Shown: one piece after another, positions 16,643-54,126 of the stretch
Numbering within the stretch: position 1 is the stretch's first letter
Layout: the number at the start of each line of letters is the position of its first letter
Assembly: GCA_022791945.1 (NCBI GenBank)
Contig: JAAVZY010000021.1
Span: 3,295-67,294, forward strand
Direction of reading: 5' to 3'
Length of the DNA stretch: 64,000 nt
Source: Oscillospiraceae bacterium
GTDB lineage: Bacteria; Bacillota; Clostridia; Oscillospirales; Ruminococcaceae
Translations under genes and position numbers: made by a program
The notes under the pieces: generated by a model
The model's database searches: none
What the model saw: only the letters and a program-made list of their open reading frames with translations
What the model was told of the DNA's origin: nothing

Positions 16643-16666
16643 TTTTGATTCCCATGGAAAGGGGGA

Positions 16667-17071: not shown

Positions 17072-17082
17072 GGGGGATAAGT

Positions 17083-17523: not shown

Positions 17524-17528
17524 CTGCC

Positions 17529-19328: not shown

Positions 19329-19330
19329 CT

Positions 19331-20635
19331 ATGGAAAACATTGATGTGCAGGAATACCTGACCCAAGGGGCCGTCCTCTCCGGGCAGGGCCAGTATGAAG
19401 CGGCCCTTGAGTACTATCGGAAGGCGGAAAAGGCGGATCCCATGGATCCGGAGGTCTATCTCGCCCAGGGCACAGCCCTGGCCAGCCTGGATCGGCTGGA
19501 GGAAGCCAAAACCCAGTTTGAGAAGGCGCTCAAGGTAGATCGCACCTGCGGGCTGGCCTACTTCCACCTGGGAAGCATTGCGATTCTCCAGGGGGACGTG
19601 GCCAAGGGCTTTGAGGACTACAACAAGGCTGTTTCCAACGGCTACGACGACGCCCAGCTCTACTACAGCATGGGCCTGCTTCATGAGGAGATCGGAGAGA
19701 TGGATCTGGCCATCCGCAGCTATTCCAAGGCGGCGCTGCGGGACCCCACCCGGCCGGACGTGCGCCTGCGGAAGGCCCAGCTCCTCCAGCAGTGCGAGCG
19801 GATTCCCGAGGCGCTCCAGGCTTTGGACGAGATGATCCTGGCCTGCCCGGATTACTTTGAGGGCTATCATATGAAATGTGTCATCCTGACGCAGCAGCGC
19901 CGCTGGGCTGAGGCGGAAAAGCTCCTGGCGGACGCGCTGGCCCTCTTCCCGGAGGATCCGGGCTTTGCGCTGGATAAGGCGTCTCTTCTGGTAGAGCGGG
20001 GCCGGACGGAGGAGGGCCTGGCTCTCCTGGATGAGCTGGAGCACCGGGAAAAGACCGACGATCCGGTTCGCCGCCGGATCTATATGGAGCGGGCCCGGAT
20101 CCACGCCTCCGCCAATCAGCTTGACGAGGCCATCACCGCCCTGAACCAGGCCAAGGCCCTTTCGGAAAAGGAGGGCGTCTTTGACCAGCAGGCAGTCTTT
20201 TTGCTGGCAAACTGCTGCCTGTCCAAGGGGAGCTATGAGCAGGTGCTGGACTGCGCCCTCCAGCTGCGGGAGAAGGGAGAGGACGTCTATATTCTGGAGA
20301 CGGCCCGTTACTTCCAGCCTTTGGCCCTGAAGATGATGGGGCGGATGGAAGAGGCCCTGCCTCTTTATCAGGAGGCGGTCAGCGCCTACCGGCAGCAGTC
20401 CCTGGATATGCCGGGCAATCTGGACGCTTATCTGCTGCGGATCATGTGCCTGCGGGACATGGAGCAGTATGAGAAGGCGTTGGAGCTGACGGATTATGTG
20501 CTTCAGCTCAAGCCGGATCGGGCCGAGCCCCGGATGCTCCGGATTTCCGTGCTGGAGGCCATGGGCCGGACAGAGGAGGCCCAGACCGAAGCCAATGCCC
20601 TTCAGGAGCTGCTCCCTCCGGAGCTGCGGAAGTAG
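19331..20635 (+). CDS. Cytoplasmic TPR repeat protein
   Basis: 434 aa of consecutive 34-aa TPR-like units (e.g. YEAALEYYRKAEKADP, AIRSYSKAALRDP). Starts 3 nt after the upstream stop. Confidence 0.8.
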   Translation: MENIDVQEYLTQGAVLSGQGQYEAALEYYRKAEKADPMDPEVYLAQGTALASLDRLEEAKTQFEKALKVDRTCGLAYFHLGSIAILQGDVAKGFEDYNKAVSNGYDDAQLYYSMGLLHEEIGEMDLAIRSYSKAALRDPTRPDVRLRKAQLLQQCERIPEALQALDEMILACPDYFEGYHMKCVILTQQRRWAEAEKLLADALALFPEDPGFALDKASLLVERGRTEEGLALLDELEHREKTDDPVRRRIYMERARIHASANQLDEAITALNQAKALSEKEGVFDQQAVFLLANCCLSKGSYEQVLDCALQLREKGEDVYILETARYFQPLALKMMGRMEEALPLYQEAVSAYRQQSLDMPGNLDAYLLRIMCLRDMEQYEKALELTDYVLQLKPDRAEPRMLRISVLEAMGRTEEAQTEANALQELLPPELRK

Positions 20636-20666
20636 GGCTTGCGCAATGAGAGGATGAGGTGTGGCT

Positions 20667-20969
20667 ATGGCTGTAAACTTACATCTGGATCAGGATGCTT
20701 TTCAGGCAGCCTGCTCCGGACTGGAGGAAAAATGCCGAGATCTGGAGGCGCTCAGCGGCCAGATTCAGAGCTCCTTTGAGCAACTCCGTCAGGATTGGGA
20801 CTCCCAGGCAGGAAAGCTCTTCTTTGAGCGTTTCGAGAACGATCTCATCAAAAATCTGGATCAGTTCACAGTGGTTATGGAGCACATGAACCAGAACCTT
20901 TCTTCTGCCTCCCAGCAGTATGAGGAGGTATTTGAGGCCGCTGAAGCTGTCGCCAACGGACAGTTCTAA
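20667..20969 (+). CDS. WXG100-family protein with degenerate W-x-S motif
   Basis: 100 aa, two predicted helices, central QDWDSQAG in place of WxG. ATG at 20667 after gagaggatgagg. Confidence 0.6.
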   Translation: MAVNLHLDQDAFQAACSGLEEKCRDLEALSGQIQSSFEQLRQDWDSQAGKLFFERFENDLIKNLDQFTVVMEHMNQNLSSASQQYEEVFEAAEAVANGQF

Positions 20970-21447
20970 AGCCTGTTCAGAGTCGAAGGGCAAGGCCGCG
21001 AGACGCTGTCTCGCGCTCTTCCAAAGGGACGCGTCCCTTTGGAATCCCATCTTTTTGAAGGGCTTTTAAGGGCGGAAAAAGGGGTGGGGTTAAGTCTGTA
21101 CAGACTTCCGGCTTTCTGCCACGCAGAGAGTCTGATTCCCGCAGGACGCTTTTTTCGTAAAGAAAAAAGCTCCCTCCTGCGTGCGGGTAGTTCCTGTGCC
21201 GCATTGGGTTCCTGCGCAGAACACGCTTGAAACTTTCTGCGTCGCAGCTTCTGCCCCACTCGTAGAGCTGAATTTTTTCTTTACGAAAAAATGGGTAGGC
21301 GGGCGATCGTCACTGCTAAGAGTATCAGCGAGGCAGGGGGACGAGCGCAAGCGCCCGTCCCCACCCCCCACCCCCAAAAGACGGGAATCCAAGGGGACGC
21401 GTCCCCTTGGCGAGTGCTCGAGAGCAGCGCTCTCGAGGTCTTGACCT
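20969..21447. repeat. Mosaic multi-hairpin repeat, full copy
   Basis: aagcctgttcagagtc-gaagggcaaggccgcgagacgctgtctcgcg at the left. ccaaggggacgcgtccccttgg..ctcgagagcagcgctctcgaggtcttgacc at the right. Confidence 0.9.
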
Positions 21448-21585
21448 TAGGAACAATGATGAAGTCTGCCGTAAGGCTGCTTTGGCGGCTTCCGCAGCCT
21501 GCTGCGGGCCTGAAGGGAATCACCGTTTCCTTCAGGTACGGAGACAATAGAAAAGCCCATTGAAAATTGAAAGGAGAAAAACGAC

Positions 21586-21885
21586 ATGGCAGAAAGAATT
21601 ATGATGACCCCTCAGGAGCTCAACGACGGCGCAGGATTTCTGCGCGATCGCCTGGAGGCTATCAACAGCGAGGTACAGTCCCTGAAAGCGAAGATCGACG
21701 ACATCGTTTCCCGGTGGGAGGGTGCCGCTCAGCAGTCCTTCGTAGCGCAGTTTGAAGAGCAGCTGTTCCCCATCCTGCGGGATGATATGCCCCAGGTCAT
21801 TACAGGCATAGCGGAGGAGCTGGATGCTGCGGCCAACGCCATCCGTGATACGGACGAGAGCCTTTCCAGCGCGTTTAAGGGCTAA
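21586..21885 (+). CDS. esxA: WXG100 family protein EsxA-like
   Basis: 99 aa. Canonical central W-E-G (SRWEGAAQQSF). Strong RBS aaaggag 9 nt upstream. Confidence 0.85.
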   Translation: MAERIMMTPQELNDGAGFLRDRLEAINSEVQSLKAKIDDIVSRWEGAAQQSFVAQFEEQLFPILRDDMPQVITGIAEELDAAANAIRDTDESLSSAFKG

Positions 21886-21960
21886 GTGAGAAGGCTGCGG
21901 CGGCCTGCCTTTGGCGGGCCGCCGCGGCTGCGCTTTCATCAATTTCAAGGAGGTTTCCCC

Positions 21961-23475
21961 ATGTCTGTCAAACGACTGCTGGCTCTATTCAATGTGCTGA
22001 TCCTCATTGTCCTTCTGTCCGGAAGGAGCCTGGGAGCGGACAGCGTCTCCCTGGTCCAGGCCTATGCCTGGGAGGACACCCTGGACGTCTTTACACAGGG
22101 CGCTTTCAGCCCCGACAGCCTTTCCTGCCGGATCTCCAATCAGGAGGCGGAGATTGTCCGGAGCGGTTCCCTGGCGGATATGGGGGTAACCGTTCAGACC
22201 CAGCTGCTGGTGGATGTGTCCACCTCCATGCCCGCGCCCCTGCGGGATAAGGTACTGGCTGTGATGGACGCCCTGATTGCCTCCATCCCTCCGGGAGAGC
22301 AGTACCAGCTTGCGGCCATCGGGGAGCAGGTTTCCGTGCTCCAGCCCTTCACCTCTGATCGGTATGATTTGGCTGTGGGAGCATCCAAGATCGCTTTCAA
22401 CGGCCAGGAAAGCCGGATCTACGACGCTGTTTACAACACCCTTCCCCAGATCGCGCCTTTGGAAGAGGGAAAGCCCTGCTTCTACCGCACGGTCATTTTG
22501 ACGGACGGAGTGGATCTGACCGATACCGGCGTGACGGTAGAGGAGCTCTACCTGAAGCTCCAGTCCAGCACCTATCCCATTGACGTTGTGGATGTCGGCG
22601 AAAAATCCGCGCCGGATCGGGAGCTGTCCGCCCTTGCGCGGATCAGCGGCGGACGGTACTTCTCCCTGAACGGGACGACGGATCCGGCGGCTCTGGCCGC
22701 CTCCCTGGGCGTGGGAGACGTATACTGGACCCGGCTGAAAGCCCCGGAGGCGCTCCTGGACGGTTCCACCCGGCAGGTCAACCTGTCCGACGGCAGTCTC
22801 TCCCTGGAGTTTGACTGCAAATTCCCCGTGTTCGGCACGCCGGAGACATCTTCGGCGCCCCCGGAGCCGCCCCCTGTATCTTCTGCGGTTCCGGTGATCC
22901 TGCCGGAGCCTGCGCCGGAGCCGGAGAAGAGCCTCCTTCCGGTGCTGCTGATTGCCGGCGCTGCGGTCATCGCCGTCAGTGCCGCAGTGCTGACGGTGCT
23001 CCTGCTCCGGAAGCGGGGCAAACAGGCGAAGCCTGGTGCCGGCGGATTGATTCCGCCCGCGCAGGGAGGGCAGGGAACAGAGCTGCTGTCAGCGGATGGG
23101 CGCACCCAGCTGATTTCCTCCACGGCCCCTTCTGTCCGGCTCCGGAGCACCGCAGATGCTTCTCAGGTGTGGGAGCTGGTTTTGGGCGCGCAGGGCCAGG
23201 AGGTGCGGATCGGCCGAAGCCCCGACTGCCGGATCTGCCTGCCGGAGGCCAGCGTCTCCCGGGAGCAGTGCAGGCTTTACTATGACGGGGGAATCTATGC
23301 GGAGAACATCAGCGGCTCCAACGTCACCCAGCTCAACGGAGAGCCGCTCAAGGCTCCTGCCCTCCTGGCAGAGGGGGATCTGCTGAAATGCGGCCGGATC
23401 TCTCTGATTGTAGAGGCGGTCACCATCTCCGGTGGAGGAAACCTGAACAAGAAAACCGCTTTCATCAATATATAG
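21961..23475 (+). CDS. Signal peptide - vWA - TM - FHA domain protein
   Basis: ATG at 21961 after caaggagg. N-terminal signal-like helix. MIDAS DVSTSM with TDGVD. TM LLPVLLIAGAAVIAVSAAVLTVLLL. C-terminal FHA signature RIGRSPDCRICL..SVSREQCRL..NGEPL. Confidence 0.8.
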   Translation: MSVKRLLALFNVLILIVLLSGRSLGADSVSLVQAYAWEDTLDVFTQGAFSPDSLSCRISNQEAEIVRSGSLADMGVTVQTQLLVDVSTSMPAPLRDKVLAVMDALIASIPPGEQYQLAAIGEQVSVLQPFTSDRYDLAVGASKIAFNGQESRIYDAVYNTLPQIAPLEEGKPCFYRTVILTDGVDLTDTGVTVEELYLKLQSSTYPIDVVDVGEKSAPDRELSALARISGGRYFSLNGTTDPAALAASLGVGDVYWTRLKAPEALLDGSTRQVNLSDGSLSLEFDCKFPVFGTPETSSAPPEPPPVSSAVPVILPEPAPEPEKSLLPVLLIAGAAVIAVSAAVLTVLLLRKRGKQAKPGAGGLIPPAQGGQGTELLSADGRTQLISSTAPSVRLRSTADASQVWELVLGAQGQEVRIGRSPDCRICLPEASVSREQCRLYYDGGIYAENISGSNVTQLNGEPLKAPALLAEGDLLKCGRISLIVEAVTISGGGNLNKKTAFINI

Positions 23476-23477: not shown

Positions 23478-24024
23478 GAGCCTGTTTTGGATCTCTGCGC
23501 ACTGGAAGGGCAAGACCTCGAGGCTCTGCCTCGAGCTCCGCCAAGGGGAAGGGATTCCCCTTGGATTCCCGTCTTTTTAAGGGCGGGAAAGGGTGGGGTG
23601 GAGTCTGCACAGACTTCCTTCCTCCTGCCGCGCAGACAGTCTGATTCCCGCAGACCGCTTTTTTCGTAAAGAAAAAAGCTCCCCTGTGGGTGCAGGATAC
23701 TTCCTGCACCCACAGGGGTTTTTATGCGCTTTGTTGAACGCTTAACCTGCTCCTTGATTCCGAGCGTAGCATAGCGTTTCACTCCGCAGAGAGTGTGAGC
23801 GTAACAGAGCACGCTCGAAATATTCTGCGTCGTAGTCTCTGCGCCGCACACGGGGCTGAATTTTTTCTTTACGGAAAAATGGGTAGGCGGGCGCTCGACC
23901 CTGCGGAGAGTATCAGCGAGGCAGGGACTGAAATTCTGCCCCCCCATAACCCCAAAAAGACTGGAATCCAAGGGGACGCATCCCCTTGGCGAGAGCGCGA
24001 GAGCAGAGCTCTCGCGGCCTTCCC
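23478..24024. repeat. Mosaic multi-hairpin repeat, full copy
   Basis: gagcctgtt..ggaagggcaagacctcgaggctctgcctcgag at the left. ccaaggggacgcatccccttgg..cgcgagagcagagctctcgcggccttccc at the right. Confidence 0.9.
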
Positions 24025-24032
24025 ATACCCAC

Positions 24033-25184
24033 CTACCCCTTCGCCAACTCCTCCAGAGACTGCCCACGGAGAGCGCGTTCCAGGAGAAGAGGGAGCTTTT
24101 CCGGGGCGCAGGCGAAGCAGGGGATTCCCATAGCGGCTACCTTCTGGGCGGTCTGCTGGTCATAATAGGGCTTGCCGCCGTCAGCAATGGCCAGCAGCAC
24201 CACCACGGTCACGCCAGAGGCCTTCATCTCCTCCAGCCGCCGGAGCAGCGCCGCCCGGTTGCCCCCCTCGTCCAGATCGGAAATCAGGAAAAACAGGCTC
24301 CGGGCCGGGGCCTCCACCAGCCCCTGACAGTAGGCGATGGACCTGGCAATGTCCGTCCCTCCGCCCATCTGGAACCCAAACAGCAGATCCACCGGATCGG
24401 CGCATAAAGGGGTCAGATCCATGATCTGGGTGTCAAAGGCAACCACGCTGGTCTGCACGGCGGACATGGAGGCCAGCACACAGGCCATCACCGACGAATA
24501 CAGCACGGAAGGCCCCATGGACCCGCTCTGGTCAATGTCCAGAATCACATGCCAGCGGTTGATCCGGCTGGAGCGATCGAAAAAGAGCACCCGCTCCGGA
24601 ATGATGGTCTGAAGCTCCGGGTTGTAGTGGCGCAGGTTCCGCCGGATGGTACCGGGAAAATCAATGGCGGCGGCAGAGGGGAGGGGAGAGTGGGCGCGCC
24701 GGTTCAGGGCGGCGGTCACTGCCCGCCGGACGTCGTTCTCCAACAGTCGGTTGATCTCCTCCACGATTTTCCGGATGAACTTCCGGGCCGCTTCCTTGGA
24801 TTTCTTGGGAATCTGATCCTTGAGCATGAGCAGGGTGGAGGCCAGATTCAGATCCGGCTCCAGCCCCTCCAGCAGCTCCGGCTCCAGCAGAAGCCGCTTC
24901 AGCCCCTTGCGCTCAATGGCGTCGTTTTGCACCACCGCCACGATCTCCGGGTCAAACAGAGACCGGAGATCCCCCAGCCACTTGGAAATGTGGGGGGCGG
25001 AGGGCCCCTTTCCCGCGCCGCCGGCGGACATGCTTTCTCCCGGCCCGCCGTAAATGGCAGACAGCGCGCTGTCCATCAGCAGCTCCTCCTGAGACAAAGG
25101 GGAGCCCCCCATCCGCTGGAAGGATTCCTGGGCCTCCGAGCCCAGAATCAGCCGCCAGCGAGCCATTTGTTCCTGCTGTGTCAC
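24033..25184 (-). CDS. vWA (CoxE-like) domain protein, YehP-like
   Basis: 383 aa. MIDAS DIDQSGSM with GGGTDI and ISDLDEG. Last gene of the SWIM/AAA+/vWA operon. Confidence 0.8.
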   Translation of the reverse strand: MTQQEQMARWRLILGSEAQESFQRMGGSPLSQEELLMDSALSAIYGGPGESMSAGGAGKGPSAPHISKWLGDLRSLFDPEIVAVVQNDAIERKGLKRLLLEPELLEGLEPDLNLASTLLMLKDQIPKKSKEAARKFIRKIVEEINRLLENDVRRAVTAALNRRAHSPLPSAAAIDFPGTIRRNLRHYNPELQTIIPERVLFFDRSSRINRWHVILDIDQSGSMGPSVLYSSVMACVLASMSAVQTSVVAFDTQIMDLTPLCADPVDLLFGFQMGGGTDIARSIAYCQGLVEAPARSLFFLISDLDEGGNRAALLRRLEEMKASGVTVVVLLAIADGGKPYYDQQTAQKVAAMGIPCFACAPEKLPLLLERALRGQSLEELAKG

Positions 25185-25196
25185 AGGCTCGCCTCC

Positions 25197-27476
25197 TTAA
25201 ATATCATCAAAGTTGAATTCCTCCAGATCGCTCAGCAGCGCCTGCTCCGCCTGGGTGGGCTCCTGCATAAGCAGCTCCGCCGCCTGGGCTGGATTCACGC
25301 CCCAGATCTCCCCAAGATTCTCTGCAATGTCGTTCTTTTCACTGGGGGAGAAGTCCGCAAAGGCCCGGCGCAGGAATACCAGCGCCCGCCTGAAAGCGTC
25401 CTCGTCCAGCCCGTCCAGATAGCCGCTCAGCTGCCGCCACAGGGACAGCCGGGCAATCAGGGCGTACCGGTTTTTCCCGGCCAGACCCTCGAACCATCCG
25501 GCCCCCAGATCCGCAGGCACGCCTGGGGAGAGCCTGCGGGAAACCTCCCGGGCCAGCAGCTCCTCGGAAACAGCTCCCCGCTCCAGCAGAATCGCCATAG
25601 CAAAGCCGGAGCATCGGGTGTTCAGATCGTCCCGGTCGGAAACCCCCTCCAGCAGCCGGATCCAGCGATCTTCCTCCAGGAAATCGTGACTGAGCTGGAG
25701 CGCGTTCAGCTGCTCCATGGCCTTGGTCACAGCGGCAGCGGACTTTGTGTCGCAGAGGCAGGCGTCCTCCAGAGTCAGGCAGGCCCGGAGATACAGCTGC
25801 TTCACCAGGGGCACCACCGGCTCCGGATCGAACCGGCGGAGATCCCCGTACCGCACCACCAGGGAAAGCCGCTGGGCGGTTTCCGCCACATCCGCCAGAG
25901 CCGCCGCATCCACAGACAGCCCCTGGAGCACCGAAAGCGCGTGAGCCGCGGCGGCGGGCATCCCGCAGAGGAAGGCGTCCTGGAAAATGGCTGCCGCCTG
26001 GGCGATGGTGGCGCTGGATTCGGCCCGTTCCTTCAAGGCAAAGGCGGCGGCGCCTTCGATGGTGTCCCCCATCAGGGCAGACTCCACCACCTCGATTTCC
26101 ACCTCCGGCGTCCAGCGGAGCTCCCAGTATTCGCCCCAGTTGGCCCCCTCCTGGCGGGAGGGAAGCTGGGAGGCAAAGTGAATATTCAGCACCCGCAGCC
26201 GATGGAGGAAGAAGGAACGCCGCAGATCCCCCAGCGCTGCCTTTTCCGACTGAACGGACAGCTTTTCCCGAAGATCCAGATCCAGCCGCTGAAGCTCGGC
26301 GGTGCGGAACTTCTCCAGCCGCAGCTCCTTCAGCTGACGGTAGAAATCCTCCTGGACGGAGGTGCGGCTGACCCCCTCGGGGAGAAACCCAATCTTCCGG
26401 CTGATCTCCGTCTCCGCCGCAGCCAGGGCCAGCTCGGAGAAATTTCCGTGGCCCATGGTGGTGACGGAGGCGTCCCGAAGATCCGCTAAGGTGGGATACC
26501 GGCTTCCCCGCATAGAGGCCAGAGTGTGGGCCAGCCGGACTCCCTCAATCACCTCCGCTGAGGAAACCAGGTTCCCGGCCTTCCGGTGGGCGGCGGCCAG
26601 GCGGGTCAGGTAGAGATAGGGCGCGTCTCCCAGATCCCCCCGGTTGAGGGCGTCCCAGAGAAGCTCAAAGTAGGCGGGGGCCTTGTTCCCGGCCCCATAG
26701 CCGGAGCGGGAGGTGAGCCGGTAGTAGGAGTAGGGCATCAGGGTAGCTGTAGAATCCGCCCTGGGAAGAGCGGCCTCCTCACGGTCGGTCATGGGCTGAT
26801 TTTCCTCCAGCCCTGCCACATGGAAGGCGCCGCAGACGCAGAAAATCCGCTCCTCCGGGATGCCGCTGTCCACCGCCTGGCGGATAACCCGCTTCATGTA
26901 GGCTTCCCGGACGATGGTTTCCGCCTGGCGGCGGTCATCCTCCCGGGAGGCTTCCCGGAGCTGCCTTCCGAAGGCGCCGCAGGCGTCCCGGTATTCCGCC
27001 GGCCCTGGGAGCTGCTCAAAGCGCCGCTCCCAGAAGGTGTCATGCTCCTCTCCGGTGAGATCCTCCAGCCGACGGTAGACGCTTTCGGTCGTGCTGGCGC
27101 AGTCCTCCTCCGGAGCAGAGGCATCCTCCGCCGGGGGCGGGGGGCTCTTCGGCTCCAGGGCCAGGAACACGGAGGAGGGGAGATCCATAAACCGGCATTC
27201 CGCCCCATGCTCATGGGCCCAGAGAATGGCCTGGATCTCTGGGGAATAGATGGCAAAGGGATAGAGCAGGGTGCGGACCGGCGGCGTTTTGGTATAGGCC
27301 AGGATGGCGACGGGGAATTGGGCGGCGGGATGGGAGAGCCACTGAAGCTGATCGTTCAGATCGCTGGGCCCCTCCACCAGCACCAGCCTGGGCCTGGCCT
27401 CATCCAGGGCCTGCCGCAGCCGGAAGGCGGCGGCGGGGGAAAGGTGGCGCACCCCGAACAGAATCGGCCCGCCCAT
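25197..27476 (-). CDS. Large conserved hypothetical protein, YehM/DUF5682-like by size and context
   Basis: 759-aa ORF. Its ATG shares one base with the upstream AAA+ stop (TGATG). I recognise no motif; the call rests on gene order only. Confidence 0.6.
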   Translation of the reverse strand: MGGPILFGVRHLSPAAAFRLRQALDEARPRLVLVEGPSDLNDQLQWLSHPAAQFPVAILAYTKTPPVRTLLYPFAIYSPEIQAILWAHEHGAECRFMDLPSSVFLALEPKSPPPPAEDASAPEEDCASTTESVYRRLEDLTGEEHDTFWERRFEQLPGPAEYRDACGAFGRQLREASREDDRRQAETIVREAYMKRVIRQAVDSGIPEERIFCVCGAFHVAGLEENQPMTDREEAALPRADSTATLMPYSYYRLTSRSGYGAGNKAPAYFELLWDALNRGDLGDAPYLYLTRLAAAHRKAGNLVSSAEVIEGVRLAHTLASMRGSRYPTLADLRDASVTTMGHGNFSELALAAAETEISRKIGFLPEGVSRTSVQEDFYRQLKELRLEKFRTAELQRLDLDLREKLSVQSEKAALGDLRRSFFLHRLRVLNIHFASQLPSRQEGANWGEYWELRWTPEVEIEVVESALMGDTIEGAAAFALKERAESSATIAQAAAIFQDAFLCGMPAAAAHALSVLQGLSVDAAALADVAETAQRLSLVVRYGDLRRFDPEPVVPLVKQLYLRACLTLEDACLCDTKSAAAVTKAMEQLNALQLSHDFLEEDRWIRLLEGVSDRDDLNTRCSGFAMAILLERGAVSEELLAREVSRRLSPGVPADLGAGWFEGLAGKNRYALIARLSLWRQLSGYLDGLDEDAFRRALVFLRRAFADFSPSEKNDIAENLGEIWGVNPAQAAELLMQEPTQAEQALLSDLEEFNFDDI

Positions 27477-28567
27477 CAGTCATTCAGCTCCCGGCAGGCC
27501 TTGTAGAGGGGAAGCCAGTGGCTGCCCCGCTTTTTCATCACATTCTCCAGGTATTCCTTCCAGGAAATTTTGTCCTTGTCTTCGTCCTTGACCACAGCGC
27601 CCTGGAGGGCAGCGGCCAGATCCGCGGGCGTGATCCCGCCGTCCCCGAAGCTTCCGGCCAGGGCCATGGAATTGGCCAGCAGGGAGATGGCCTCTGCGGT
27701 GGAAAGCACCCCGGAGGTGGTTTTCAGCTTCTGCTTTCCGTCCAGAGTTGCGCCGGCCCGGAGCTCCCGGAAGATGGTGACCACCCGTTCCACCGTGTCC
27801 TCATCCGGCTGGCGGGCGTTGAGATCCAGCCCTGCGGAGAGTTGGGCCACCCGGGTGCGGACGATTTCCATTTCCGTTTCCATGTCGGAAGGGGTGGGGA
27901 GCACCACAATGTTGAACCGCCGTTTCAGCGCGGCGGACATATCGTTGACCCCTTTATCCCGGGTGTTGGCGGTGGCGATGACCGAGAAGCCCTTCTGGGC
28001 GGGAAGCTCCAGCCCCAGCTCCGGAACGCTGATCCGCTTTTCCGAGAGAAGGGAGATCAGGGCGTCCTGCACCTCGCTGGCACAGCGGGAGATCTCCTCC
28101 ACCCGGGCGATGGAGCCGGTTTCCATGGCCCGGTAGACCGGGCTTTTCACCATGGCCTCCAGGCTGGGGCCCTTGGCGATGAGCATGGCGTAGTTCCAGG
28201 AGTAGCGGATCTGTTCCTCAGTCGTGCCGGCAGTGCCCTGCACGACCTTGGTGGAGTCCCCATTGACCGCTGCGGAAAGGTGCTCGCTGAGCCAGGATTT
28301 GGCAGTGCCCGGCTCCCCGATGAGCAGAAGCGCCCGATCGGTGACAAGAGTGGCGATGGCGATCTCCACCAGCCGCTGGTTTCCCATGTATTTGGGCGTG
28401 ATCTCCACGCCCTTTACCTTCACGTTTCCGGTGAGATAGGTGAGGACGGAGCGGGGAGACATCCGCCACCCGGTGGGGATGCTGTCTTTCTCCGCGCTGA
28501 TCAGCGCCTCCAGCTCTCTCTGATACAGCTCCTCCGCCGGAAGCCTTTGCACGTTTTTCTCAGACAT
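27476..28567 (-). CDS. MoxR/AAA_5-type AAA+ ATPase, YehL-like
   Basis: 363 aa. Walker A GEPGTAKS, a Walker B/sensor region ARVEEISRCASEVQDALISLLSEKRISV and an arginine-finger region KRRF. RBS gaaggag. Confidence 0.85.
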   Translation of the reverse strand: MSEKNVQRLPAEELYQRELEALISAEKDSIPTGWRMSPRSVLTYLTGNVKVKGVEITPKYMGNQRLVEIAIATLVTDRALLLIGEPGTAKSWLSEHLSAAVNGDSTKVVQGTAGTTEEQIRYSWNYAMLIAKGPSLEAMVKSPVYRAMETGSIARVEEISRCASEVQDALISLLSEKRISVPELGLELPAQKGFSVIATANTRDKGVNDMSAALKRRFNIVVLPTPSDMETEMEIVRTRVAQLSAGLDLNARQPDEDTVERVVTIFRELRAGATLDGKQKLKTTSGVLSTAEAISLLANSMALAGSFGDGGITPADLAAALQGAVVKDEDKDKISWKEYLENVMKKRGSHWLPLYKACRELND

Positions 28568-28588
28568 TGGCGTTCACTCCTTCAAAGT

Positions 28589-29253
28589 TATTCAGGCTCT
28601 CTGGGTATCAGGGGAAGACCTCGAGGGCGCCGCCCTCGAGCACCTGCCAAGGGGACGCGTCCCCTTGGATTCCCGTCTTTTTTTTGGGGGGTGGGGACGG
28701 GCGCTTGCGCCCGCCCCCTGCCTCGCTGGTACTTTCTGCCTCGCTGCTGCTCCCTTCGTGGGCGATCGCCCGCCTACCCATTTTTTCGTAAAGAAAAAAT
28801 TCAGCCCTACAGGCGGCGCAGAGGCTGCGACGCAGAAAGTCCCGAGCGTGTTCTGTTACGCTCATGCTTTCTGCAAGGAGCGACGCTGTGCCACGCTCGG
28901 AATCCCCCTGCCATCCGCTTCGCTCCTGGCCCTCCCCCCTTTAACAAGGGGGCAAGGGGTTTGTGCGGCGCAGGACGAGTCCCACACGCAGGAGGGAGCT
29001 TTTTTCTTTACGAAAAAAGCGTACTGCGTGAATCAGACTCTCTCTGTGGCAGAAAGCCGGAAGTCTGTACAGACTTGACCCCACCCCTTTTTCCGCCCTT
29101 AAAAAGCCCTTGAAATAATGGGAATCCAAGGGGAATCCCTTCCCGATGCGCCGCCAGCGGCGCATCTCAGAATTCGGCGAAGCCGAATTCCTAGGTGCGT
29201 CGTTTCACGACGCACCGCAGAGCGCGAGACAGCGTCTCGCGGCCTTGCCCTTC
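28589..29253. repeat. Mosaic multi-hairpin repeat, long copy (665 bp) with extra triple-hairpin cassette, inside an operon
   Basis: ttattcaggctctctgggtatcaggggaagacctcgagggcgccgccctcgag at the left. gatgcgccgccagcggcgcatc + gaattcggcgaagccgaattc + gtgcgtcgtttcacgacgcac + cgcgagacagcgtctcgcggccttgcccttc at the right. Confidence 0.9.
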
Positions 29254-29268
29254 GAGGCCGTCGGAGCC

Positions 29269-31131
29269 TCAATCCTTCTCCCAGGCGTCCAGCTGCCGCT
29301 GAACCTGCTGGGGGGCCCAGCGGGGACGGGAGCTGCTCTGGGCCTTGACGATCTCCTCCAGTGCCCGGAGCTCCGCGGCCTTTTCCGGGCCGGTCAGGGG
29401 CGTTTCGTCCAGCAGGCGGGTGACCGTGTACAGATTCATGGCGCTGTCCCGCTTCACCCGCTTGGAGAGCAGCCCCTTCCACTCTGTCCAGCCGCATTCC
29501 TTTAAAAAGGCCACATCCTGCCAAAGGGAAGCGGAACCGCCATCATGGACAGCCTTGTAAACGCAGGCGCCGATCTTTTGACAGATCCGGGGATCGTCCG
29601 GACGAAGCAGATGCCGGAGAATCCCGGACATATCCGGATTTTCCGTCAGCAGATCGTACCACCGGGGATCCAGGGGCTGGAGGACAGGCCAACAGCGGCT
29701 GTATACAGGGACGTATCTGCTGTAAATCGTATGATAGGAGATTTCGTACCGGCTCCGTTCCCGGTTCCAGAAGACCCGGGACAGGCCCTCCAGGGCGGCC
29801 CGGTTGAAAATCTGCTCGCGGGCGTTGTTCATGAGGGTTTTATGGATCACCAGATAGGAGGAAAACGCCTCAAAAACCTCCTCGGCCGAACGGGTAAGCA
29901 GGGAGGCGACCATCCCGTGAGGGAGATACCGGGCCTGATCCTGATGCCGGCTCCACAGCTCCAGGGCAAGGCCGCACAGAGGCCCCGGCCCGGTCTGGCA
30001 CAGGCTCTCCAGCAGCCAGGCGGGCAGCGTCTCGCCCAGCTTGCTGTGCGGCGCGCCGGAGGCAGACTTCAGCTTCCCCAGGGCGTTCAGATGCCCGTCA
30101 ATCCATCGCCAGCAGTCCAGCATGGCAGGGGAGGATTTCCCTGAGATGGCGGCGTGGCAGCTGTCCAGCAGAGCCAGCGTCTCCTTGGCGGCCTGCCCGT
30201 CTCCGGCCAGAAGCCCCTCCAGCTGGGAGCGGAAGGCGGCAGCGGCCAGATCCGACGCCCAATCCGTCCCGCTGAGAGCCAGGTACTTCACCGAATCGGC
30301 GTTTTTGCCGATCTCCTCCTTCCAGAAGGCGGAAACCGCTTCACCGTCCTGCCTGGCCAGAGCCTCCAGCACGGCCTCCCGGTTTCTGCCCCGCTCGGTC
30401 CTGGAGAGATCCAGCAGAATTCCGTTGTTCTCACTGTCCAGTCCCAGGGCTGTGATCACCGCTGTCCGCACATCCTTCTTGGACTTTGGCAGCAGATCCC
30501 GGAGCCAGGCCCCGGCCCCTTCCCCGGACAGAGCGGCGATCACCTCCACCCGGCGGGCCATCTCCCGCTTTCCCTCCGGATCAAAGCCCTCCCGCAGCAG
30601 GGGAAGGAGAGAGGGCCCCTGCCGCTTCAGGATCTCCACATAGAGATCCGCCAGTTCGGCATAGCTCTCGTCCAGGTGCTCTACCAGGACGGGAAGCACC
30701 CGGTAGTCCCCGAAAAACTCCGGATGCGCCTCCCAGATTTCCCGGATCTGTCCGATCCGGCCGCCGCCGGAGCCGGTAACCGCCTCAAGCAGAGGATGAA
30801 GCTGGATGTAGGAAAGCTCCAGGCAGGCCCCGCATCCTTTGGGGGAAAGGGGCGCCAGCTCCCCGGAGGCGCCGGCGCTGCCCTGGGTGTATGCCACCGC
30901 GTCCACCAGGGCTAGTACATCCAGCAGGAGCAGGGCCCGCTCCTCTGCGGGGGCGGAGAGGAGAGACTGGAGGCTTCCGTCAATTTTGGCAAATACCGGG
31001 CTGGCGGCTGCCAAAGGCCGGAGCCCCTCTGCCGCCCGCTGAAGGCGGAAATCCTCGCTGAGCAGACCGGTGCCCGCGATGGCGGCGGATTCCAGCCGTT
31101 CCTTTACGTCATAAAGAGGTTGCAGATTCAC
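29269..31131 (-). CDS. All-helical 620-aa hypothetical protein of the SWIM/AAA+/vWA operon
   Basis: GTG start 8 nt after agggagg. Leu/Ala-rich repeats suggest a HEAT/ARM-like solenoid. No catalytic motif recognised. Confidence 0.6.
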   Translation of the reverse strand: MNLQPLYDVKERLESAAIAGTGLLSEDFRLQRAAEGLRPLAAASPVFAKIDGSLQSLLSAPAEERALLLLDVLALVDAVAYTQGSAGASGELAPLSPKGCGACLELSYIQLHPLLEAVTGSGGGRIGQIREIWEAHPEFFGDYRVLPVLVEHLDESYAELADLYVEILKRQGPSLLPLLREGFDPEGKREMARRVEVIAALSGEGAGAWLRDLLPKSKKDVRTAVITALGLDSENNGILLDLSRTERGRNREAVLEALARQDGEAVSAFWKEEIGKNADSVKYLALSGTDWASDLAAAAFRSQLEGLLAGDGQAAKETLALLDSCHAAISGKSSPAMLDCWRWIDGHLNALGKLKSASGAPHSKLGETLPAWLLESLCQTGPGPLCGLALELWSRHQDQARYLPHGMVASLLTRSAEEVFEAFSSYLVIHKTLMNNAREQIFNRAALEGLSRVFWNRERSRYEISYHTIYSRYVPVYSRCWPVLQPLDPRWYDLLTENPDMSGILRHLLRPDDPRICQKIGACVYKAVHDGGSASLWQDVAFLKECGWTEWKGLLSKRVKRDSAMNLYTVTRLLDETPLTGPEKAAELRALEEIVKAQSSSRPRWAPQQVQRQLDAWEKD

Positions 31132-31146
31132 TTAAGATACCTCCCT

Positions 31147-32577
31147 TCAGTATTGCAGCCGGAGAATCCGGGACGGAGTAACCAGGCTGTAGGGATGCAG
31201 ACAGAGGGAGCGATCCCGCCCGTCGTAAAACATCAGCCCGAACAGGGCGCTCCCGGCGGGGATTTCCTCCGGCAGGGCGAAGAGACGGCCAACGGAAGCG
31301 TGATCCGGTCCGTCCTCGGGCCGATCCCGCAGAAGGATCCGCCCGCCCTTGGGATCCTCCAGCACCAGCTCCTTCCCCGCTGCTCCAATCTGTCCTACGG
31401 GAACCAGCACGGCCAGAAACTTCGGGGCAAGGGTGTTTTTAATCTGCCCTTTGACCAGCTTTACCGCTGCGGCCAGATCCGGCTGCGCCAAGGCGGCGAG
31501 GGCGGCCAGATCCGGGGAGGACACAGGACGGGAGGAGAATTCCTCCCAGCGGATACGGCGGTTGCCCTCGCCGGGATATATGTACAGAGCGGGGATCTCC
31601 AGCAGATCGAAGCGGCTGTCTTCTCCCTTGACGTACTTCAGGGCCTTGATAGGCCGCAGATTCAGGGTCTGGCTGATCTCGCCGGTGTCCAAATCGATCC
31701 AGAAGCCCCGTTCCGCCAGCTCCTGTTTGGCCTCGTCGCAGGTGACCTCAAAGGAGAGCTGAATCAGCCGGGCGTGCTCCCGGAAGGCTCCCACGGCTCG
31801 GAGATCCTCCAGCTTCCAGATGCCGCCCAGGGATTCAAAGAGGAAGGAATCCTCGGCGGAGAAGTTCCCGGCGTCCAGCTTTTCCTGCAGGAATCCCCGC
31901 GCCCGTTTCAGCGTGGAGCGGAGGGCAATCAGGATTCGGAGGGCCTCTCCGTAGAGCTGATCCGCCTGGGAGGGATCCTTCTGCACAGTGCGGACCGTGA
32001 GGGCGATGCGGGAAAAAGCGGTCTGCGGGCCGGTGAGATAGTAGCCTCCCAGATCCTTTGCCAGCTTATCGAAGGTCTGAGCGGAGCTGCCAGCCAGAGT
32101 CCCCAGGCCGGAGGTGAGCAGATCCTTGACCATCCGCTCCGCCATGTCGAGGCCCTCCAGCTGCCGGGAGAGCTTTTTCTTCTGAGCGGCGGCGTTGGGC
32201 TTTTTAGGTTTGGCAGGGGCGTCGGCCTTAGCGGCTTTAGCGGCCTGCTTGGCACGTTTTTCAGCCAGCTCTGGAGGAATTTCGGCGACTTCAAAGGACT
32301 TTCCGGAGAGCTGTTCAAACATCAGGCCCAGAGCATGCTTGCAGGGAAACTGCCTGCTTGGGCAGGAGCAGCGGCAAACCGGCGCGTCGGGATTGGTCCA
32401 GTCAATGGAGGTGTGGTAGGGATTTTTGCCGCTCCCGGCGCAGTCCGCCCAGTAGAGGGAGTCATCCTGGGTTTTGCGGAGATCGGAGAAGCTGCCCTTC
32501 TTGGAGAGCTTGCGTCCGTTTTCCGCCGCTGCGGCATTGGGAGCCTGAAGGAGGATAAACTGTTCCGTCAGCTGCAT
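31147..32577 (-). CDS. SWIM zinc-finger protein
   Basis: CRCSCPSRQFPCKH matches the SWIM pattern CxCx(n)CxH. A Lys/Ala-rich linker and a ~300-aa C-terminal domain follow. First gene of the operon. Confidence 0.8.
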   Translation of the reverse strand: MQLTEQFILLQAPNAAAAENGRKLSKKGSFSDLRKTQDDSLYWADCAGSGKNPYHTSIDWTNPDAPVCRCSCPSRQFPCKHALGLMFEQLSGKSFEVAEIPPELAEKRAKQAAKAAKADAPAKPKKPNAAAQKKKLSRQLEGLDMAERMVKDLLTSGLGTLAGSSAQTFDKLAKDLGGYYLTGPQTAFSRIALTVRTVQKDPSQADQLYGEALRILIALRSTLKRARGFLQEKLDAGNFSAEDSFLFESLGGIWKLEDLRAVGAFREHARLIQLSFEVTCDEAKQELAERGFWIDLDTGEISQTLNLRPIKALKYVKGEDSRFDLLEIPALYIYPGEGNRRIRWEEFSSRPVSSPDLAALAALAQPDLAAAVKLVKGQIKNTLAPKFLAVLVPVGQIGAAGKELVLEDPKGGRILLRDRPEDGPDHASVGRLFALPEEIPAGSALFGLMFYDGRDRSLCLHPYSLVTPSRILRLQY

Positions 32578-32684
32578 AGGAACGCCTTCTTTCGTAATGG
32601 ATAGGGAAAATATTTGCTACTATCATAGCACGTTTGCCCCGGAAAATCAATTTCCGCAGAGCTAAGAAGTGTCGTATTCACAAG

Positions 32685-33144
32685 GGGGAAGACCTCGAGA
32701 GCTCTGCGCTCGAGCACTCGCCAAGGGGAAGGGATTCCCCTTGGATGGGGGTTATGGGGGTGGGGACGGGCGCTTGCGCCCGTCCTCTTGCCTCGCTGAT
32801 ACTCCCTTCGTGGCCGATCGCCCGCCTACCCATTTTTTTGTAAAGAAAAAATTCATCCCCACGTGCGGCGCAGGGGCTGCGACACAGAAAGGTTCGAGCG
32901 GGTTCTGCTGCGCAGGAACCCTTGTACGGCGCAGGGAGTACCCCGTACCCGGGGGGAAGCTTTTTTCTTTACGAAAAAAGCGTACTGCGTGAATCAGACC
33001 ATCTGCGTGGCAGGGAGAGGCAAGTCTGTACAGACTTGCCCCACCCCTTTTCCGCCCTTAAAAAAAGCCCTTAAAATAATGGGAATCCAAGGGGAATCCT
33101 TTCCCCTTGGCAGGTGCTCGAGGGCAGAGCCCTCGAGGTCTTCC
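32685..33144. repeat. Mosaic multi-hairpin repeat, full copy
   Basis: ggggaagacctcgagagctctgcgctcgag..ccaaggggaagggattccccttgg at the left. ccaaggggaatcctttccccttgg..ctcgagggcagagccctcgaggtcttcc at the right. Confidence 0.9.
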
Positions 33145-33162
33145 TGCTATGCATACAGTTTC

Positions 33163-33205
33163 TAAGAAAAGGAGAACCGCCGCTCAGTCGGACTGGCGGC
33201 GGTTC
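33163..33205 (-). terminator. Rho-independent terminator downstream of fucI
   Basis: 10-bp GC-rich stem gaaccgccgc / gcggcggttc (33174-33183 and 33196-33205), followed on the - strand by TCCTTTTCTT. Confidence 0.6.
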
Positions 33206-33233
33206 TTCGGAAGGGCAGAGCCTGTACTGGTTC

Positions 33234-37728: not shown

Positions 37729-37844
37729 GGCTTCTAACTGTTTATTATAGCCGAATTGTCTGAAAAACGCCAGGAGATATCCCAGCGTTTGAGGAAAAGA
37801 ACAGAGGATAGGGGAGGGCGTTCATAGCGGAGCCTGATGGGAGG

Positions 37845-49182: not shown

Positions 49183-49270
49183 CTGAATGCATTCCTCCGA
49201 TTCCTGGAAAATCCCGGGATAAGAACAGAGGCGGACGGCGCTGTGCCGTCCGCCTCTGTGTTCCGGCCTG

Positions 49271-49996: not shown

Positions 49997-50130
49997 TCAG
50001 TAATGTATTTCCTCCAAATTCTTTATAGCCCCTCTCAACCCTGCAAATCCCCATGTATACTGCCTTTAAGCGGAATTGCAATTTCTTAGAAGCACACGCA
50101 TCTTTCTGTATTTCTACATAAGTTTCCGGC

Positions 50131-50154: not shown

Positions 50155-50225
50155 CAGAATGGAATGAAACGGATGTAACCTGGTACTGCCCCATTTAGCG
50201 AAGCAAGAGCAGCACCAACCGGCCT

Positions 50226-54120: not shown

Positions 54121-54126
54121 GACAAT

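Follow-up and report, generated by a model that had tools for sequence, protein, structure and literature searches.

The minus-strand operon of five genes described here, found in a 64,000-nucleotide stretch of Oscillospiraceae DNA (the window), can be assigned by sequence comparison as the Oscillospiraceae member of a cross-phylum module of which yehLMPQ from Escherichia coli is the named example. The operon type is widespread, known and uncharacterized, and the copy in the window adds to this known type; new here are a predicted TIKI-like domain in the DUF5682 protein, a HEAT-repeat protein made up of one conserved and one hypervariable module that can occur as several tandem paralogues, and, in this genome, a lineage-specific dispersed repeat that splits the operon. 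The features of the locus are as follows.

32622..32650, minus strand: promoter-like site, TTGATT-17 nt-TATGAT with an extended -10 TG (consensus scan)
31147..32577, minus strand: gene 1, SWIM zinc-finger protein, 476 aa (Pfam SWIM, 4.4e-6)
29269..31131, minus strand: gene 2, HEAT-repeat protein, 620 aa (HEAT_2, best in the family 5.6e-8)
~28612-29254, no strand assigned: copy of a dispersed, lineage-specific intergenic repeat, ~640 nt, at the HEAT/AAA junction
27476..28567, minus strand: gene 3, MoxR-type AAA+ ATPase of the YehL subfamily, 363 aa (AAA_5, 9e-39)
25197..27476, minus strand: gene 4, DUF5682 (YehM-like) protein, 759 aa (Pfam DUF5682, 3e-151)
26673..27476, minus strand: N-domain of gene 4, residues 1-268, predicted divergent domain of the TIKI/TraB/ChaN/erythromycin-esterase superfamily
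24033..25184, minus strand: gene 5, CoxE-type VWA protein with an intact MIDAS, 383 aa (VWA_CoxE, 2e-45)
23681..23718, no strand assigned: bidirectional terminator-like hairpin, GC-rich, with a 17-bp stem and T-runs on both sides

Operon organization and distribution

An ORF check reproduced the coordinates and lengths of the five minus-strand reading frames between positions 24033 and 32577 of the window, and all of those listed in the initial annotation were found, together with the motifs that it had singled out: CRCSCPSRQFPCKH in the SWIM protein, GEPGTAKS in the AAA+ protein and DIDQSGSM in the vWA protein. Hundreds of homologues exist for every one of them, and relatives contain the same five-gene block, so that they are judged to be real genes and not chance ORFs. 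The two coupled junctions pointed out earlier are also present, namely the TGATG stop-start overlap at 27476 between the AAA and DUF5682 genes and the 12-nt gap before the VWA gene, which contains GGAGG; the SWIM and HEAT genes are separated by 15 nt with GGGAGG inside. The operon genes are translationally coupled, with overlapping or 12-15-nt junctions that carry ribosome-binding sites. The promoter-like site precedes the start codon of the SWIM gene by 45 nt and comes from a scan that returned four sites against 1.1 expected in shuffled sequences, and the terminator-like hairpin is located downstream of the VWA gene, within another copy of the dispersed repeat (23504-24034). The operon is flanked in the window by fucose-utilization genes and by T7SS-like genes. 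The term 'T7SS block' given to the latter could be verified only in part, by an EssC/EccC-type FtsK-SpoIIIE ATPase of 1524 aa (12068-16642), a TPR protein and a VWA+FHA protein (21886-23475) convergent to the operon.

Comparison of 80 species-level Oscillospiraceae genome loci revealed a complete SWIM-HEAT-AAA-DUF5682-VWA block in ~55, the incomplete ones being mostly short contigs cut inside the block. All five genes are intact and stay together as a block, and their motifs (ATPase, MIDAS, zinc finger and His/Glu/Arg/His) do not vary. The core proteins of relatives are 71-93% identical to those of the window, with 78-87% identity for the VWA protein across Oscillospiraceae. The order SWIM, repeat protein, AAA, DUF5682, VWA is also found in Rhizobium and Deinococcus, while other lineages display the permuted order AAA-DUF5682-VWA-SWIM-repeat and the AAA-DUF5682-VWA triad also occurs on soil metagenome contigs.

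The SWIM, AAA_5, DUF5682 and VWA_CoxE families were confirmed by Pfam HMM searches, and the kinship with yehLMPQ, first suggested in the initial annotation, is borne out by full-length similarity to YehL, YehM and YehP and by matching Pfam architectures (AAA_5, DUF5682, VWA_CoxE and an N-terminal SWIM). The E. coli features given with that suggestion were right (yehL, 362 aa, AAA+; yehM, 759 aa; yehP, 378 aa, VWA; yehQ, 614 aa, SWIM). The two operons have the AAA_5, DUF5682 and VWA genes in the same order, translationally coupled and with common catalytic and ligand motifs, a SWIM finger at the same N-terminal position and a DUF5682 protein of identical length (759 aa). In E. coli, however, the SWIM gene comes last and encodes a protein of 614 aa, against 476 aa in the window, that cannot be aligned outside the finger; a homologue of the 620-aa HEAT protein is lacking, and DUF4132 genes (yehH and yehI), a WGR gene (yehF) and yehK lie upstream. 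The window's operon also differs in being broken by a repeat element. The clusters of Rhizobium etli pRetIE4771d and Deinococcus taeanensis (SWIM, DUF5691, AAA, DUF5682, VWA) have the same order and orientation as the window, identical AAA, DUF5682 and VWA motifs and a homologous SWIM protein (hhalign 99.4%), whereas their second slot is occupied by a DUF5691 protein of ~470 aa without detectable similarity to the HEAT protein profile (E 0.29). YehL constitutes a subfamily of the MoxR AAA+ ATPases (Snider & Houry, 2006, as cited in PMC3893208), and yehL and yehM are silenced by H-NS in E. coli (PMC3686432), which suggests conditional use of the system.

The five proteins and a predicted TIKI-like domain

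Gene 3 is 41% identical to E. coli YehL over its full length (residues 1-361; BLASTP E 9e-87), and its Walker A motif GxPGTAK(S/T), Walker B residues EE157-158, sensor-1 residue N201 and arginines R203, R216 and R217 are invariant across phyla; among solved structures the midasin AAA ring comes closest to it (1.5e-12), and NorQ is a further relative. Gene 5 aligns with YehP over its full length (34% identity, E 2e-72). Besides the VWA domain it has only a helical N-terminal part, and across phyla its MIDAS residues D218-x-S220-x-S222 and D303 are invariant and GGGT277 nearly so.

Gene 4 shares 26% identity with YehM over the full length of both 759-aa proteins (E 6e-35) and belongs to a family of 3126 representative clusters at 50% identity; a literature search returned no paper mentioning DUF5682 or DUF5691. 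Its AlphaFold2 model (pLDDT 92.9, pTM 0.89) predicts an α/β N-domain followed by a long α-solenoid formed by the C-terminal 490 residues. The full-length fold search retrieved helical-repeat scaffolds only, with E > 0.01. The N-domain, modelled with a pLDDT of 87, is predicted to adopt an α/β fold with a parallel β-sheet core. Across 99-100 sequences, including E. coli YehM, the residues R10-H11, E35, E80, D98, E154, R190-E191 and G216-x-x-H219 of this domain are invariant.

This N-domain looks like a divergent hydrolase of the TIKI/TraB/erythromycin-esterase type, a prediction drawn from four independent, weak-to-moderate lines: the invariant residues, the Foldseek matches, weak Pfam matches and a residue order and spacing resembling, when compared along the sequence only, the catalytic set of RRSP and Ere. 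Foldseek retrieved a TraB family protein from a viral library (E 1.1e-4, probability 1.00) and, from the PDB, EreC at rank 1 (E 9e-3) and HopBA1 at rank 4; the structural support is moderate because the TM-scores are low (0.30-0.38). The only recurrent weak Pfam matches, each in 3 of 23 members and below the gathering score, were to ChaN (5e-4) and TraB (1.2e-3), and no TIKI-superfamily family in Pfam was matched at the curated threshold; a PDB sequence match was not obtained either. Some members of the superfamily, such as ChaN and PMT, are non-catalytic binders. The catalytic set of the superfamily comprises two His and two Glu plus a conserved basic residue (PMC6254334), and the His-Glu and Arg-His spacings of 24 and 29 in the N-domain compare with 28 and 29 in RRSP (PMC6254334). 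The predicted domain has the α/β fold in common with the superfamily and resembles it in the order and spacing of two invariant His, several Glu and an Arg; it differs in being very divergent, in a ~75-residue helical insertion, in its junction to the 490-residue solenoid and in its constant linkage to a MoxR-VWA pair, an association absent from the literature searched.

The SWIM protein (gene 1) is organized as an N-terminal CxCx6CxH domain, a Lys/Ala/Pro-rich linker (approximately residues 100-135), a helical region and a β-rich C-terminal region. Fifteen orthologues all retain C70, C72, C79 and H81, and the linker, which is conserved, resembles histone-like DNA-binding tails. Homology with the SWIM protein encoded in the Rhizobium cluster extends over residues 1-187 (hhalign probability 99.4%, E 5e-21). 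YehQ is a possible orthologue: an N-terminal Pfam SWIM domain occurs in both proteins, and beyond the zinc finger alignable similarity is restricted to one weak motif (BLASTP E 1.4; hhalign, 38 columns, probability 3%).

The HEAT protein (gene 2) is the variable component. HEAT_2 is matched by 20 of 26 family members, and the protein is divided into a conserved N-terminal module (residues ~1-260) and a hypervariable C-terminal module, with mean pairwise identities within the family of 60 and 28%, respectively. Its 81 sequences fall into 28 types, relatives carry one to four divergent tandem paralogues per locus, and in Treponema an N-terminal 85-aa module is joined to leucine-rich repeats in place of the HEAT part. 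This variability is consistent with a client-selecting adaptor or sensor subunit. An initial description of the protein as DUF4132-like was not sustained: Pfam detects HEAT repeats only, PF13569 is matched neither by the window protein nor by any of the 26 family members, and BLASTP and hhalign comparisons with E. coli YehI were negative. DUF5691 was likewise rejected, with no PF18944 match in the same set and an hhalign E value of 0.29 against the Rhizobium DUF5691 protein, so that the equivalence of the two is positional only.

A possible remodelling machine and competing readings

The system is read here as chromosomal and vertically maintained, a dedicated cellular remodelling or processing machine and not mobile defence. 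The explanation that best accommodates the data, still held tentatively, is that of an ATP-driven MoxR/MIDAS remodelling machine in which an adaptor selects the clients and a TIKI-like hydrolase receives them. The hexameric MoxR ring and its VWA partner would act as in other MoxR-VWA pairs (literature summarized in PMC7159879 and PMC3893208), the MIDAS gripping an acidic residue or peptide of the client and ATP hydrolysis by the ring remodelling it. The DUF5682 α-solenoid would be a large scaffold bridging the partners, and its N-terminal domain the catalytic end-point, cleaving a peptide or ester bond of the presented client. The SWIM and HEAT proteins may dock through their conserved N-terminal modules, leaving the variable C-terminal repeats of the latter to choose the client. 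Assembly of the five proteins into one complex is suggested by gene linkage. No conserved neighbour hinting at the client was found across the 80 loci. A bolder version, which is possible and rather doubtful, would make the module a class of ATP-dependent processing machine not recognized before. A cryptic TIKI-family hydrolase would receive its clients from a MoxR ring with a MIDAS adaptor, and the choice of target would fall to a swappable, fast-diversifying repeat subunit (HEAT, leucine-rich-repeat, DUF5691 or DUF4132), several of which may stand in tandem. If true, this would amount to a bacterial receptor-plus-protease system for foreign-protein surveillance or conditional host proteolysis.

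The initial annotation had raised NTP-dependent conflict or immunity. Spelled out here, the variable HEAT, leucine-rich-repeat or DUF5691 protein would sense invader proteins, the MoxR-VWA pair would serve as a threshold switch and the TIKI-like domain would be a protease acting as effector, through death or arrest of the cell or through cleavage of the invader. TIKI-fold toxins do exist (HopBA1 and RRSP), H-NS silencing in E. coli is what is seen for foreign DNA, almost every species has the operon in a different genomic context, and the divergent, duplicated C-terminal HEAT module, set against the highly identical core and swapped for leucine-rich repeats in Treponema, fits conflict no less well than housekeeping. 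The logic of a MoxR, a vWA and a third protein also parallels the four ternary conflict systems of the VMAP, iSTAND, FtsH and β-propeller types (Kaur et al., 2020, PMC7159879), which share with the window type a MoxR AAA+ protein, a CoxE-derived vWA, an obligatory large third protein, possibly peptidase-bearing, and one variable subunit. Against this, the window type has a highly conserved chromosomal core outside defence islands. Membership in the four described types was rejected, the third component being DUF5682: Pfam detects no VMAP, inactive STAND, FtsH or β-propeller family in the five proteins, gene 3 scores 29 bits for bpMoxR versus 133 for AAA_5, and PMC7159879 mentions neither YehL nor SWIM. 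No variable C-terminal effector domain was found on the VWA protein by Pfam or in the Oscillospiraceae comparison. A scan against PADLOC-DB v2 gave no significant component match (best E 8e-4), and only ~5-7 of the 124 nearest neighbours match defence models, the neighbours in the 80 loci being variable and mostly housekeeping (Hsp33, chorismate synthase, transporters). The family occurs on 44 of 72,556 plasmid records, mostly megaplasmids, and on 1 of 50,697 phage records. In E. coli, yehLMPQ is present in 5353 of 5426 complete genomes (98.7%) as a single chromosomal copy, which in prevalence comes close to the universal housekeeping conservation that had been named as evidence against a conflict role. 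The suggestion is unsupported by PADLOC, by the neighbourhoods, by the plasmid and phage counts and by the E. coli prevalence, and it is the fast-evolving tandem HEAT subunit that still lends it a low probability.

A cofactor- or metal-insertion chaperone in the manner of CoxD/CoxE, NorQ/NorD or the chelatases is likewise unlikely. The MoxR-VWA pair would here open an apo-enzyme for cofactor delivery, and the DUF5682 N-domain would be a ChaN-like ligand or metal binder with His and Glu as ligands and not a hydrolase. The strong CoxE-type VWA match, the presence of NorQ among the solved ATPase relatives and the haem-binding ChaN as best weak Pfam match of the N-domains are in its favour, as is the fact that most characterized MoxR-VWA pairs mature metalloenzymes; the E. 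coli cluster, moreover, adjoins molR/yehH, historically named as a molybdate-metabolism regulator. The genes for CoxDE, NorQD and CbbQO adjoin their clients, and metalloenzyme structural genes are unlinked to the operon in the 80 loci, in Rhizobium and in Deinococcus; the linked client that marks CoxD/CoxE-type metallocentre maturation was not found, nor was any conserved neighbour in the 80 loci. A hypervariable multi-copy adaptor is also ill-suited to one fixed enzyme client, and residues resembling the complete 2His/Glu/Arg set of catalytic TIKI members are invariant. Midasin/Rea1, CoxD-CoxE, NorQ-NorD and RavA-ViaA all resemble the window type in pairing an AAA_5/MoxR ring with a MIDAS-containing VWA partner that remodels a client, and differ from it in having a known, genetically linked client and in lacking TIKI-like, SWIM or variable repeat subunits.

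Least probable is a 'split midasin', with the AAA_5 ring, the DUF5682 solenoid linker and the MIDAS on separate chains stripping or loading ribosome- or DNA-bound factors and the Lys-rich SWIM protein as nucleic-acid contact; the midasin ring as closest solved ATPase relative, the predicted solenoid, the intact MIDAS, the histone-like linker and E. coli neighbours that include WGR and DUF4132 proteins, with relatives induced by DNA damage in Deinococcus, would fit, but midasin resembles the ATPase only in the generic AAA_5 module, nucleic-acid binding is no more than a guess based on composition, and the invariant TIKI-type residues and variable HEAT subunit are left unexplained.

The repeat between genes 2 and 3

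The HEAT and AAA genes, which in most relatives are ~15 nt apart, are separated in the window by 701 nt (28568-29268). The insertion of a repeat at this position had been recognized earlier; its size, then given as 665 bp, is roughly 640 nt. The repeat motif is absent from the 80 related loci, whereas 22 copies are found within the window against none expected. The copy at 28612..29254 contains several hairpins and TTTTTCGTAAAGAAAAA as an inverted pair; weak terminator-like hairpins lie on the minus strand at 29139-29121 and 28823-28805. With this element lying between genes 2 and 3, expression of the three core genes in this genome would depend on read-through or on a promoter within the inserted repeat.

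Layout of the operon and the repeat that splits it

Five open reading frames occupy the minus strand at the positions and with the lengths reported in the initial annotation, and the motifs quoted there are present in the five proteins.

31147-32577, minus strand: gene 1, SWIM protein
29269-31131, minus strand: gene 2, HEAT protein (620 residues; family HEAT620)
27476-28567, minus strand: gene 3, AAA ATPase
25197-27476, minus strand: gene 4, DUF5682 protein
24033-25184, minus strand: gene 5, VWA protein
45 nt upstream of the SWIM start: promoter-like TTGATT-17-TATGAT with an extended -10 (consensus scan and sequence)
3' of the VWA gene: hairpin with a 17-bp stem (window scan)

The TGATG overlap of the AAA and DUF5682 genes and the 12-nt gap between the DUF5682 and VWA genes were both confirmed, the latter containing GGAGG; the 15-nt gap between the SWIM gene and gene 2 contains GGGAGG. 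Searches with Pfam upheld the proposed SWIM (4e-6), AAA_5 (9e-39), DUF5682 (3e-151) and VWA_CoxE (2e-45) assignments, but not the DUF4132-like guess for gene 2, for which a DUF4132/YehI identity was ruled out by Pfam, BLASTP and hhalign. The sole Pfam match of gene 2 is a sub-threshold HEAT_2; taken over the whole family, this match is convincing (20 of 26 members, best 5.6e-8). [quoted passage not shown] Scanning the window for Rfam families and tRNAs gave no matches. From Oscillospiraceae to E. coli, Rhizobium and Deinococcus, the ATPase has invariant Walker A and Walker B (EE) motifs, an invariant sensor-1 Asn and three invariant Arg, and the MIDAS motif DxSxS...T...D of the VWA protein is likewise unchanged; the Cys/His ligands of the SWIM finger are also invariant.

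A repeat insertion of 665 bp had been described between genes 2 and 3; the repeat is indeed present, but its size is about 640 nt, within a 701-nt gap, at a junction that measures about 15 nt in most relatives. It belongs to a dispersed, non-coding repeat of 500-650 nt with at least 12 copies in the 64-kb window, always intergenic and in either orientation, which takes up most of the intergenic regions.

Copies of the dispersed repeat in the window
Copy 1: about 1-300
Copy 2: about 1240-1730
Copy 3: about 5073-5660
Copy 4: about 11275-11780
Copy 5: 20984-21455
Copy 6: 23504-24034 (flanks the operon)
Copy 7: 28612-29254 (between genes 2 and 3)
Copy 8: 32686-33207 (flanks the operon)
Copy 9: 37199-37730
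Copy 10: 47073-47693
Copy 11: 58296-58757
Copy 12: 61870-62402

The copies are 60-93% identical. Each has GC-rich hairpins nested within one another, as well as two TTTTTCGTAAAGAAAAA motifs that are inverted relative to each other and separated by 120-220 nt. This motif has 22 matches in the window against none expected, and none in about 1.4 Mb of related sequence from 80 Oscillospiraceae loci; the repeat itself has no Rfam match. Scanning the minus strand of the insert at 28612-29254 revealed no promoter and only weak terminator-like hairpins. In most cases the 'GGGAAGACCTCGAG' end of the repeat points towards the beginning of the following gene, an orientation that suggests a function as an outward promoter or 5'-UTR. 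The operon is an ordinary member of the yehLMPQ-type family, split by a genome-specific repeat.

A conserved core and its distribution

The analogy with E. coli yehLMPQ drawn in the initial annotation is supported for the core of the system. The window ATPase and YehL are 41% identical over their full length (9e-87), the DUF5682 protein and YehM, each of 759 residues, are 26% identical over their full length (6e-35), and the VWA protein and YehP are 34% identical (2e-72). The window SWIM protein and YehQ have the N-terminal finger in common and, outside it, a single weak motif of 38 columns, seen with hhalign; HEAT620 showed no similarity to YehQ. In E. coli K-12, the region reads yehF (WGR), yehH (pseudogene), yehI (DUF4132), yehK, yehL (AAA+ MoxR), yehM, yehP (VWA) and yehQ (SWIM). 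YehL gives its name to a MoxR subfamily (PMC3893208), and yehLMPQ is silenced by H-NS in E. coli (PMC3686432).

The closest DUF5682 homologues, 77-81% identical, come from Oscillospiraceae of the mouse, chicken and human gut (Lawsonibacter, Flavonifractor, Oscillibacter and Colidextribacter). Across 80 species-level genome loci the order SWIM, HEAT, AAA, DUF5682, VWA was found wherever the contig was long enough, with the full five-gene set in about 55, and a few distant lineages display AAA, DUF5682, VWA, SWIM, HEAT, which is the E. coli order. The Rhizobium etli and Deinococcus taeanensis clusters are annotated SWIM, DUF5691, AAA, DUF5682, VWA, and homology between the Rhizobium SWIM protein and the SWIM family of the window is clear (hhalign 99.4%, E 5e-21, residues 1-187). 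Soil metagenome contigs carry DUF5691-AAA-DUF5682-VWA or the AAA-DUF5682-VWA triad alone. The DUF5682 family comprises 3126 representative clusters at 50% identity and covers at least seven phyla, with tblastn matches in Fusobacterium, Hymenobacter, Rhizobium, Streptomyces, Nocardia, Deinococcus and Escherichia. From this distribution and these architectures, the invariant core is AAA_5, DUF5682 and VWA_CoxE, and the SWIM protein and the repeat protein in the gene 2 position (slot 2) are its near-constant companions.

Two types of unusual cluster were also observed. On a soil or aquatic metagenome contig (L085:678-2817), the AAA_5 gene is in two ORFs of 164 and 189 residues and a Fic/RhuM-domain gene lies between it and DUF5682, so that this cluster may be a degraded or toxin-invaded copy. 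Long DUF5682 proteins of 1049-1097 residues are represented by P0183, P0192 and the protein at L083:3317-6610; the last follows an AAA_5 gene with no separate VWA gene downstream, and may be a DUF5682-VWA fusion.

A predicted hydrolase domain and a variable subunit

In an alignment of 99 DUF5682 sequences, R10, H11, E35, P55, P73, S78, E80, D98, E154, R190, M194, G216, H219, G363, E449 and G664 are invariant, and they are conserved in E. coli YehM too. The confident AlphaFold2 model (pLDDT 92.9, pTM 0.89) displays an alpha/beta N-terminal domain (residues 1-260) followed by an alpha-solenoid. A fold search with the full-length model gave generic helical-repeat matches only, all with E > 0.01, and was informative only with the N-terminal domain modelled on its own (pLDDT 87). 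The best match of this domain in the viral library was a Marseillevirus TraB family protein (E 1.1e-4, prob 1.00) and its best PDB matches were the erythromycin esterase EreC (E 9e-3) and the effector HopBA1, with low TM-scores of 0.30-0.38. The weak Pfam matches that recur among 23 N-terminal domains are ChaN (5e-4) and TraB (1.2e-3), and no others. HopBA1, ChaN and Bcr135, an Ere-family protein like EreC, are members of the TIKI superfamily, the catalytic set of which is 2His/2Glu plus a conserved Arg (PMC6254334). The order His, Glu, Arg, His is alike in RRSP and in the DUF5682 domain, with spacings of 28 and 29 residues in the former and of 24 and 29 in the latter. From the model and these matches we infer a divergent TIKI-superfamily domain, which probably retains hydrolase chemistry, with a predicted active site formed by H11, E35, R190 and H219 in YehM/DUF5682.

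The slot-2 protein is the most variable subunit. Among the Oscillospiraceae loci, identity to the window copies is 85-93% for AAA, 78-87% for VWA, 69-81% for DUF5682, 57-76% for SWIM and 36-57% for HEAT, with lower values in the most distant lineages. Mean pairwise identity within the HEAT family is 60% over residues 1-260 and 28% over residues 261-620, and clustering of its 81 sequences at 55% identity gives 28 types. In nine relatives, two to four mutually divergent HEAT620 paralogues of differing types stand in tandem between the SWIM and AAA genes.

Loci with tandem HEAT620 paralogues
L013, L025, L032, L041, L054, L071
L055 (three paralogues)
L035, L040 (four paralogues each)

Some of the paralogue types are common to different genomes, pointing to an ancient repertoire from which members were lost differentially. 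In a Treponema MAG (L079:1122-2285), with the order repeat protein, SWIM, AAA, DUF5682, VWA, the slot-2 protein begins with the N-terminal ~85 residues typical of HEAT620 proteins (49% identity) and continues as BspA-type leucine-rich repeats (LRR_5, 1.5e-35). Slot 2 is DUF5691 in other phyla, and in E. coli two DUF4132 proteins adjoin the cluster; similarity of gene 2 to DUF5691 was not detectable. Judged from sequence, such variability is what would be expected if a docking module were linked to a recognition module that can be exchanged.

Proposed cellular role of the system

In MoxR-VWA pairs a client peptide is captured by the MIDAS site and the AAA+ ring remodels the client. Because of this established behaviour and of the anatomy seen here, the best reading is that the DUF5682 protein would act both as a scaffold and as a TIKI-type hydrolase on the remodelled client, that the SWIM and HEAT proteins would dock via their conserved N-terminal modules, and that the C-terminal HEAT repeats would select the client. 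A rival reading of the VWA_CoxE and ChaN matches would be a chaperone of the CoxDE kind that inserts a cofactor and has a binding domain like ChaN; another would be a split midasin that remodels nucleoproteins. Among solved structures, the midasin AAA ring (1.5e-12) and NorQ are the closest to the ATPase. A conserved-synteny search for a linked client gene found none, the largest flank family occurring in six of the 80 loci.

The third rival, a conflict sensor-effector system, follows the conflict/immunity role proposed in the initial annotation, which found no support in any test run (PADLOC, flanks, plasmid and phage records, E. coli census). PADLOC was negative on the five operon proteins and nearly so on 124 neighbours, a handful of which match defence models. 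Flanking genes are overwhelmingly housekeeping in relatives and show no conservation between species across the 80 loci, in a census that is approximate, as the greedy ORF caller takes some antisense ORFs in GC-rich DNA. The operon in the window is bordered on one side by genes for a fucose isomerase, an aldolase and a DeoR regulator, and on the other by a gene for a VWA+FHA protein and an EssC-like ATPase block. Of 72,556 plasmid records, 44 contain a member of the DUF5682 family, and most of these 44 are megaplasmids or chromids. A single phage record contains one as well, and this record is doubtful: MT835988.1 (10530-12770, 50% identity), a 14-kb human faecal contig labelled 'Bacteriophage sp.' and lacking annotation, is probably bacterial DNA binned in error. 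In published MoxR-vWA conflict systems the third component differs from that of the window system, and the vWA protein is fused to variable effectors (PMC7159879), fusions that the window system does not have. The evidence is that the system is chromosomal and not associated with defence islands; the only feature reminiscent of conflict systems is the variability and amplification of its slot-2 protein.

Seven subfamilies of MoxR are recognised, among them YehL. Almost all E. coli genomes carry yehLMPQ: 5353 of the 5426 complete ones have it as a single copy on the chromosome. A literature search for DUF5682, DUF5691, yehLMPQ and MoxR with vWA and SWIM found no functional study, no mention of DUF5682 or DUF5691 and no YehL-subfamily experiment. 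To this known, functionally uncharacterised family the present analysis adds a predicted TIKI-type hydrolase domain and a modular, diversifying adaptor, with three testable handles: the predicted YehM/DUF5682 active site, the slot-2 protein as a conserved docking module with a hypervariable recognition module, and the evidence for a chromosomal system outside defence islands. If the hydrolase prediction is true, it would represent a new way to couple a MoxR-VWA chaperone with an enzyme and provide a biochemical role for four E. coli y-genes.

Elsewhere in the window, the block at 12068-23475, the genes of which have no counterpart beside the operon in relatives, encodes an EssC/EccC-like triple-P-loop FtsK-SpoIIIE ATPase (1524 residues), a 602-residue protein without a Pfam match, a TPR protein that weakly matches EccA1_N and, convergent with the VWA gene of the operon, a VWA_2+FHA protein (21886-23475). 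At 6895-7080, a 51-nt unit in three and a half tandem copies, 83-88% identical, sits in a plus-strand ORF of the T7SS-like block. A long imperfect array of 9-nt period (49320-49958, 28 overlapping register copies) sits in a 631-residue ORF on the minus strand (48100-49995) and would encode a segment of three-residue period. The stretch at 50001-54000 has a GC content of 0.48, compared with about 0.60 elsewhere, few long ORFs are found at 51500-54500, and the low-GC stretch may be a foreign or non-coding island.
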